Source: Eledone cirrhosa
Taxonomy: Eukaryota
Direction of reading: 5' to 3'
Assembly (NCBI GenBank): GCA_964016885.1
Contig: OZ024748.1
Coordinates: 56,234,001 to 56,298,000, forward strand
DNA length: 64,000 nt
Below the pieces are notes generated by a model. It saw only the letters and a program-made list of their open reading frames with translations, was not told the origin of the DNA and searched no databases. The position numbers and the translations under genes were made by a program. The number at the start of each line of letters is the position of its first letter. Within the stretch, counting starts at the first letter, position 1. Shown here in pieces: positions 35,439 through 35,654 of this stretch.

Positions 35439-35654
35439 AGCAATAGGAAAAAAGTATGACCCCCGACGGCAGAGCTCAAGCCGTTTCGACGGCTATTTCT
35501 GGACTAAATTGAATTTAGTGCAAAAATAGCCGTCGAAACGGCTTGATCTCTGCCGTCGGGGTCCTACTTGTTCTATTACCCACTCTACTACACTAAGTAT
35601 TGAGTAATCTGGTGCATTATGGTCCATCTGGTTCCTTACCACAATTCCTTCGTT
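35439..35654 (+). mobile_element. Fold-back element family D
   Basis: Palindrome centred at about 35511 (actaaatt g aatttagt). GAAA at 35535-38 followed by GCCG-TC. Unpaired tail of about 80 nt into (TA)n. Confidence 0.8.

Follow-up and report, generated by a model that had tools for sequence, protein, structure and literature searches.

Penelope-like elements (PLEs) of the Hydra clade, Hydra-1_Obim among them, encode an RT followed by a C-terminal GIY-YIG domain, carry the motifs DKT and CxCX5C, insert into (TA)n targets and have a hammerhead near the 3' end; an inverted, 5'-truncated copy tailed at one end is described as well (Craig et al. 2021, PMC8557442). In the part of that paper available here, an in vitro system is called for to explain inverted PLE insertions. 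For Poseidon PAc of Anolis, a member of a different clade from the family described below, in vitro work revealed two internal sites of RT initiation delimiting the tail, nicking and extension of both strands, AT-rich targets and insertion with no need for ribozyme cleavage; in the accessible part of the report the inverted products are not explained, 5' ends are not mapped and the steps after priming are left untested (Frangieh et al. 2024, PMC11167929). The Cercyon hammerheads of Schistosoma mansoni have a U3-A8 core and form opposite-strand pairs 100-700 bp apart (Cervera and de la Pena 2014, PMC4209133). In Drosophila virilis, Penelope transcription starts at an initiator inside the pLTR; the promoter has a DPE in place of a TATA box, and an intron is present (Schostak et al. 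2008, PMC2377424). Non-LTR retrozymes are short non-coding hammerhead-related derivatives of PLE pLTRs (bioRxiv 10.64898/2026.07.22.740005). The inverted tailed layout, opposite-strand hammerheads, the U3-A8 core, the two start sites and a promoter in the pLTR are thus already published.

A PLE family of Eledone cirrhosa, here called D, resembles these systems and departs from each of them. Its hammerhead has a YUGANAA core and a helix II of ~56 nt, compared with CUGANGA cores in the Hydra rows of File S2 of PMC8557442; its tail is ~78 nt long versus 30-40, and the element is ~3.6 kb versus generally <3 kb in the same source, the available part of which does not describe palindromic copies of 150-250 bp in the mass that D has produced. 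Whereas the Cercyon hammerheads are described as minimal motifs (PMC4209133), helix III of D is full, its helix II is long, and 36 of 100 listed D cores are C3-A8, an uncompensated pair. Non-LTR retrozymes are reported as head-to-tail tandems with whole ribozymes (bioRxiv 10.64898/2026.07.22.740005); the short D copies are head-to-head and lack the 5' half of the ribozyme, and the retrozyme assignment was rejected for them on account of this layout and the missing core. The promoter proposed below for D also lies inside the pLTR, but it differs from that of Penelope in its TATA-like box and in its position: since the Penelope intron ends at helix I (PMC4209133), the Penelope start lies 5' of the ribozyme and not inside helix II. 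Judging by search listings of the literature open without subscription and outside Repbase, we found no PLE inversion centre mapped to a transcription start, no report of a start inside helix II and no use of solo or mixed-family joints to separate fold-back from dual priming; nor did any listed paper deal with fold-back or twin priming in PLEs, or with short palindromes like these.

The window, i.e. the whole stretch of DNA analysed, comprises 64,000 nucleotides (contig OZ024748.1, positions 56,234,001 to 56,298,000). A first-pass annotation had named hairpins of three families, D, C and E, and these were recovered as inverted repeats, at 35442-35577, 40742-40869, 38081-38190 and 21247-21400. 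Each hairpin in the window is flanked by TA runs and has one end that stays unpaired. All arm positions are numbered with the G of GAAA as 0, and the copies are laid out as follows.

35427..35438, no strand: (TA)n target left of the D copy
35442..35510, minus strand: tail-less arm of the D copy, beginning at the base of helix I (fixed site near +42) and ending at -23, with the G of its GAAA at 35487
35511..35511, no strand: single junction base separating the D arms
35512..35575, plus strand: tailed arm of the D copy, with the helix II 3' strand, GAAA at 35535-35538, helix III, the UC site at 35556-35557 and the helix I 3' strand
35576..35653, plus strand: D tail of ~78 nt between both fixed end sites; leader 5' of the ORF in the full element (locus L230)
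35654..35663, no strand: (TA)n target right of the D copy
4951..5122, plus strand: D copy; tail-less arm 4951-4978 ends at +14, tailed arm 4980-5122 starts at -22; G of GAAA at 5002
40744..40948, plus strand: D copy (40746) whose arms stop at -19 and -22, with the G of GAAA at 40827 (plus) and 40784 (minus)
38011..38189, no single strand: inverted C copy (38014); tailed arm on the minus strand, G of GAAA at 38122
28500..28627, plus strand: solo C arm with tail (28501), starting at -15, no mirror arm
28929..29055, minus strand: solo C arm with tail, starting at -18, UGAUGA kept, no mirror arm
21248..21463, plus strand: inverted E copy; both arms end at -27, G of GAAA at 21351, tail to 21463

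In all three families GAAA is followed by helix III and a UH cleavage triplet, and the turning points lie 10-30 nt 5' of GAAA, as the annotation had it (e.g. -23/-23 in the D copy at 35439 and -27/-27 in the E copy). Position -18, the modal D arm end and the proposed transcription start, corresponds to 35517 in the tailed arm of the 35439 copy. In the inverted C copy the tail-less arm lies on the plus strand, starts at -18, keeps UGAUGA and has the G of its GAAA at 38149. The turn of the E copy falls on a native self-complementary stretch inside helix II.

The surroundings of these copies hold further elements. A whole hammerhead of another PLE family, G, adjoins the D copy (35700-35860, core at 35768) and recurs on the minus strand near 12309. 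More hammerhead-like motifs, with GAAA 13-27 nt 3' of the core, were seen at 6707, 40611 and 11490 (plus strand) and at 26234, 10773 and 7003 (minus strand). No hammerhead family appeared among the 150 listed of 664 matches in an Rfam scan of the window. Further inverted repeats, most of them between TA runs (52180-52395, 52498-52751, 12399-12511, 10313-10601, 43205-43280), are likely other families with the same layout. A 131-aa open stretch (45727-46122, plus strand) presumably resembles the C-terminal part of a restriction-like-endonuclease non-LTR element.

For comparison beyond the window, ~1.9 Mb of loci (L numbers) were sampled from the 3.0-Gb host genome, which is rich in (TA)n: 100 unselected 10-kb stretches, together with loci centred on the D tail, the D core, D-like matches and E; L001 and L165 were dropped as duplicates. 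Hairpins made up 232 of 2,114 inter-(TA)n segments and formed 18 clusters of at least 3, most with one unpaired end. A 26-mer of the D tail has 13,151 exact matches in the genome, and a pattern spanning both D arms has 13,105, i.e. the genome contains at least 13,105 head-to-head D copies. Their lengths are continuous up to the full ORF-bearing element. In 12 segments, L184 among them, a repeat that we take to be like a tRNA-derived SINE, from a B-box-like motif, has the same inverted, one-tailed layout in (TA)n, as though PLE proteins had mobilised it. A tRNA-like stretch also occupies the centre of an inverted insertion in L236, which suggests a template jump onto a tRNA.

Longer D copies share an upstream sequence made up of an untranslated stretch, an RT and a GIY-YIG domain. 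The most complete reading frame is a 710-aa open stretch (L212:1773-3902) in which RT motifs followed by VIY..YIG were recognised by eye; it has 402 relatives at E<=1e-20 among 7,999 scored, and searches of Pfam and PDB with this ORF returned 0 matches each. The motifs are DKT, RWR (not RWK) and CNCPDRSIC, a CxCX5C linker, the endonuclease is C-terminal and the target is (TA)n. By its sequence the D parent is an EN+ Penelope-like element, in agreement with the PLE origin that had been suggested for the hairpins. It matches the Hydra clade as that clade is described in the available part of PMC8557442, a match of motifs and target rather than of tree placement; likeness to Hydra-1_Obim was judged by eye only. 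The Naiad clade was considered and rejected, as the endonuclease is C-terminal and not N-terminal and the motif is DKT and not DKA.

In locus L230 the pLTR with its hammerhead, the tail, the leader and the ATG follow one another in tandem. Since hammerhead pLTR and tail run straight into the leader and the ATG, the leader contains the two fixed ends of the arms (+42 and ~+122), just as the two RT start sites of PMC11167929 are situated. When 20 long D copies were examined, all 20 were inverted with one tail, and their tail-less end fell at +40..+50 in 20/20. The tails of D (5046-5100) and C (28565-28600) have a 10-nt motif in common, which is partly present in the tails of other families too, and one C copy (L244) switches to a D tail at this motif. 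It may be a protein-binding site.

The predicted type I hammerhead of the D parent has three helices around its core, with a helix II of ~56 nt and a full helix III. Its core, YUGANAA, has A8 in 3,414 matches versus G8 in 19; among the first 100 listed, U3-A8 was found in 64 and C3 with A8, which is uncompensated, in 36. Pairing in the D helices holds in 91.9% of cells, versus at most 50.7% for slid partners. Covariation did not rise above shuffles in 24 close copies. In a diverged relative of D (L271) three double-sided changes in helix II were noted by eye, and in five copies the fold constrained to the hammerhead lay 1.1-5.3 kcal/mol above the minimum. The C3-A8 cores (36 of the 100 listed) sit in lineages that are still spreading widely; given these mismatch lineages, self-cleavage may be dispensable for the spread of D. 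A parent with CTGANGA 8-36 nt from the D GAAA was sought and rejected: of 48 matches, the 20 examined were junction by-products or sequence of other families. The annotation had described the CUGANGA half of the ribozyme as missing and replaced by a mirror image. This does not describe C or most of E, in which the window copy belongs to a minority, and the parents of D have YUGANAA in place of CUGANGA.

The ends of 171 D arms with intact helix III were then compiled, omitting L002-L050 and L181-L230, which had been selected for junction or core. At -10..-25 there were 120 ends, compared with 28 at 0..-9, 10 at -26..-89 and 13 further upstream; the density was 0.095 ends/nt at -10..-25 and 0.010 upstream (p=1e-19), and the mode was -18 (24/171 arms). 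This zone covers the 3' strand and the apical part of helix II, the apical loop lying at -29..-22. Since it falls in helix II of the parent, the earlier guess that the apex sits there holds for D. In a diverged D relative, counted without 8 D rows of 36, the initiator-like A at -18 is kept and 13/27 arms end at -17/-18. Solo D arms abutting (TA)n at -18 gave 528 matches, where TA microhomology may favour exactly this position. D arms joined head-to-head to other repeat families end at -9..-21 (L253, L240, L031, L040, L033, L034; the last four came from a biased search). In L044 and L050 same-strand jumps from D onto the RNA of another family occur near -14..-18, and in L044 the core of that family stands ahead of the D 3' half, giving a hybrid hammerhead-like sequence. 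Runs of up to ~19 A were also seen at cDNA ends near -21 (including L241), where the template has three U; they look like reiterative copying at a template end, and fit a physical end of the template.

The same apex had been claimed for several families, and for C and most of E this claim fell. In long copies, read by eye, C and E parents carry a CUGANGA core (CUGAUGA in C) with predicted helices I-III, i.e. a type I hammerhead. Helix II of C spans -12..-1; of 62 C arms, 44 have their end at -16..-27, which is core or helix I, another 10 at -2..-8 and 1 at -33, and 7 are long. The window copies at 38014 and 28929 keep 6/7 core bases with their UGAUGA. In 13/17 inverted E copies at least one arm retains the whole core or almost all of it (by eye). 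Arm ends of H (15/31 at -19..-25) and c7 (8/17 at -26..-38) lie just 5' of the core, those of K (7/9 at -60..-63) and c9 (6/20 at -110..-113) ~45 nt and ~70 nt 5' of it, and those of G spread over a broad range. Because ends differ in this way by family, helix II is not a common turning point. The H core in long copies reads CAGAAGA (U4 -> A; window 7696-8591 and 43581).

The hairpins are short head-to-head PLE insertions in (TA)n, and on balance we consider it probable, by a modest measure, that they arise by dual priming. A PLE protein would prime both target strands at the two fixed sites in the RNA leader, and both cDNAs would run off the 5' end of the RNA, which is likely the transcription start in the pLTR. 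Short copies would stem from priming on the upstream pLTR copy and long ones, which are truncated at random, from priming on the downstream copy; the cDNA ends would be joined by end-joining or a template jump, sometimes via native helices. In D the start would fall inside helix II, leaving the promoter-proximal copy without the 5' half of the ribozyme and unable to self-cleave. In L1 twin priming, too, two cDNAs primed from both target strands are joined head to head, and there each copies its own part of the RNA and the second priming site is random. Unlike this, both start sites of D are fixed and its arms mostly overlap.

The identification of the RNA 5' end with a promoter draws on three of the seven families, in which a TATA-like box starts 29-31 nt 5' of a pyrimidine-preceded A at the modal or upper arm end: D (-18, 1-2 mismatches), C (-25, 0-1 mismatches) and K (-63, 0 mismatches), under a loose null that this combination satisfies at 7-40 in 175 positions. 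The -25 of C was chosen after seeing the data (gapped alignment puts its modal end at -22), K was examined after the promoter idea had formed, and -63 of K coincides with the base at which a small stem begins. H and c9 have an initiator-like A and no good TATA, and c7 and E have neither motif; for all seven families we compared the ends with what we take to be the Pol II core promoter consensus motifs. A cap-derived G was looked for at the solo joints at -18, where 33/528 carry G, and next to -18 in junction inserts, where 6/13 do versus 26/83 elsewhere (p=0.35). An apparent excess of such G (16/26) was gone once the bases of the partner arm were excluded. In view of this negative result and of the 29/171 D arms that end at -19..-25, i.e. 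1-7 nt 5' of the proposed start and including both arms of the 35439 copy, the promoter step is one that we infer. A splice acceptor (AG after a pyrimidine run; D, C, H, K) was rejected as the source of the ends, because the ends include the AG and no upstream exon recurs in the junctions; in D, the exon starts that it predicts, -16 and -11, account for only 9 and 3 of 171 ends.

The main rival keeps dual priming and derives the template's 5' end from RNA processing, by a cut in the apical loop or decay halted at the ribozyme fold, or from a protein or structural block that applies to an entire RNA molecule, in place of a promoter. We regard it as rather unlikely, though it has the crowding of C, H, c7 and E ends at or just 5' of the ribozyme 5' boundary in its favour, as well as the location of the D zone just 3' of the A/U-rich apical loop (-29..-22), the missing cap-G signal and the two families without promoter motifs. 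The K and c9 ends, so far 5' of the core, speak against it, as do the diverged D relative, which keeps the -17/-18 end despite a different sequence around the apical stem, and the 29-31 nt TATA spacing in three families.

How the two arms arise can be read from the D pairs. Exactly one tail was present in 80/84 short pairs. The explanation offered in the first-pass annotation was fold-back on helix II. In the form weighed here, the first cDNA would self-prime on helix II or another native helix, and the tail-less end would stem from an endonuclease cut or a second short cDNA. As the general cause this failed, and we now consider it improbable. In 40/46 clean pairs neither arm reaches -31, where the 5' strand of helix II lies, so the cDNA held no such hairpin. 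Moreover, the tail-less arm extends at least 5 nt further in 33/80 short pairs and the tailed arm in 14/80, and of the 20 long copies 6 have the greater length in the tail-less arm and 11 in the tailed one, 2 have arms of about equal length and 1 is nested (by eye), the difference often amounting to kilobases. A tail-less arm that exceeds its tailed partner cannot result from fold-back of a tailed cDNA, and fold-back of a tail-less cDNA gives no tail without a second priming, so no single scheme yields both orders. Solo and mixed-family joints end in the same zone as the pairs, ~10/50 centres have loops of only 0-2 nt (by eye), and most of the apexes in C and E do not fall in helix II.

Other features of the pairs fit fold-back. 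As had been anticipated, the arms of one copy come from one source: their subfamilies agree in 33/35 pairs versus 22% expected and at site -8 in 49/49 readable junctions, and in 17/20 long insertions the two arms resemble one another more than they do any other copy. No private helix I variant was common to both arms in 110 pairs of short copies, a stretch that holds too little sequence to tell. The arm classes are coupled as well. Fifty of the first 100 listed core matches lie in head-to-head pairs, and in L181-L210 15/15 visible partners of core-bearing arms reach at least -50 and none end at -10..-25 (by eye). Had each cDNA stalled by itself, a long arm should mostly have a short partner. 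Since long arms pair with long arms, the stop is a property of the template or of the event as a whole and not of independent stalls; the coupling fits short and long RNA templates better than such stalls, with a few intermediate mixed pairs (L259, L254, L162, L266). The near-complete concordance and the coupling would, however, be just as likely if one arm had served as template for the other. Some junctions are in the register of native helices (L053, L070, L162, L297, L137, L141, L011), so that fold-back, or microhomology supplied by a helix, would be a minor route next to the joining of two primed cDNAs.

Palindromes are unstable, internal deletions between short repeats are common in the arms, and longer inverted insertions might thus have been shortened later by deletion of the palindrome centre, halting at a preferred place. 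This appears very unlikely, as non-palindromic solo arms and mixed joints end in the same zone and long palindromes persist; deletions after insertion could nevertheless create some of the arm asymmetry. Least credible, with hardly any probability left to it, is the self-propagating MITE-like or SINE-like class that the annotation had raised, copied whole with its junction, since in spite of a very high copy number and some recurrent junctions (two types at 4/50 each) 41 of 46 clean pairs and 36 of 50 copies found with the pattern spanning both arms have distinct junctions, the four recurring types each occur in both subfamilies and so arose repeatedly, the ends differ by the tail and are not terminal inverted repeats (duplications being unreadable inside (TA)n), and lengths run on to the full element. 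That junctions are made anew at each insertion had been expected in the annotation and stands; short copies serving as templates, with the junction remade each time, are compatible with it.

Within the dual-priming account, a more specific version for D can be put forward tentatively, as a possibility that we rate below even. D transcription would start inside its own helix II, so that the upstream pLTR copy would be a half-ribozyme hiding its GAAA in an alternative hairpin, and the downstream copy would be able to fold whole. In 3/5 copies, RNA starting at -18 was predicted to fold into a short hairpin whose loop includes the GAA of GAAA. A dimeric PLE protein would prime both (TA)n strands on this leader, and the centres of the more than 13,000 palindromes would record the start site.

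The short palindromes are a real and very abundant product of a known element class, and the account given here of where they turn is new and testable. Thousands of junctions from one family amount to a direct genomic test of inverted PLE insertion; on their evidence two primed cDNAs are preferable to fold-back, and exact RNA 5' ends can be predicted from them. What look like 'half-ribozyme MITEs' in (TA)n-rich genomes are then PLE products, which repeat pipelines could misfile. If D transcription does start inside helix II, the genome would preserve PLE transcription starts and an insertion intermediate as a fossil map, and much double-stranded RNA could come from the palindromes. In Octopus bimaculoides the potential for double-stranded RNA is reported to be high and hyper-editing to occur (PMC5625713, as far as the available part of that study goes), and in an octopus host the D palindromes may bear on both.
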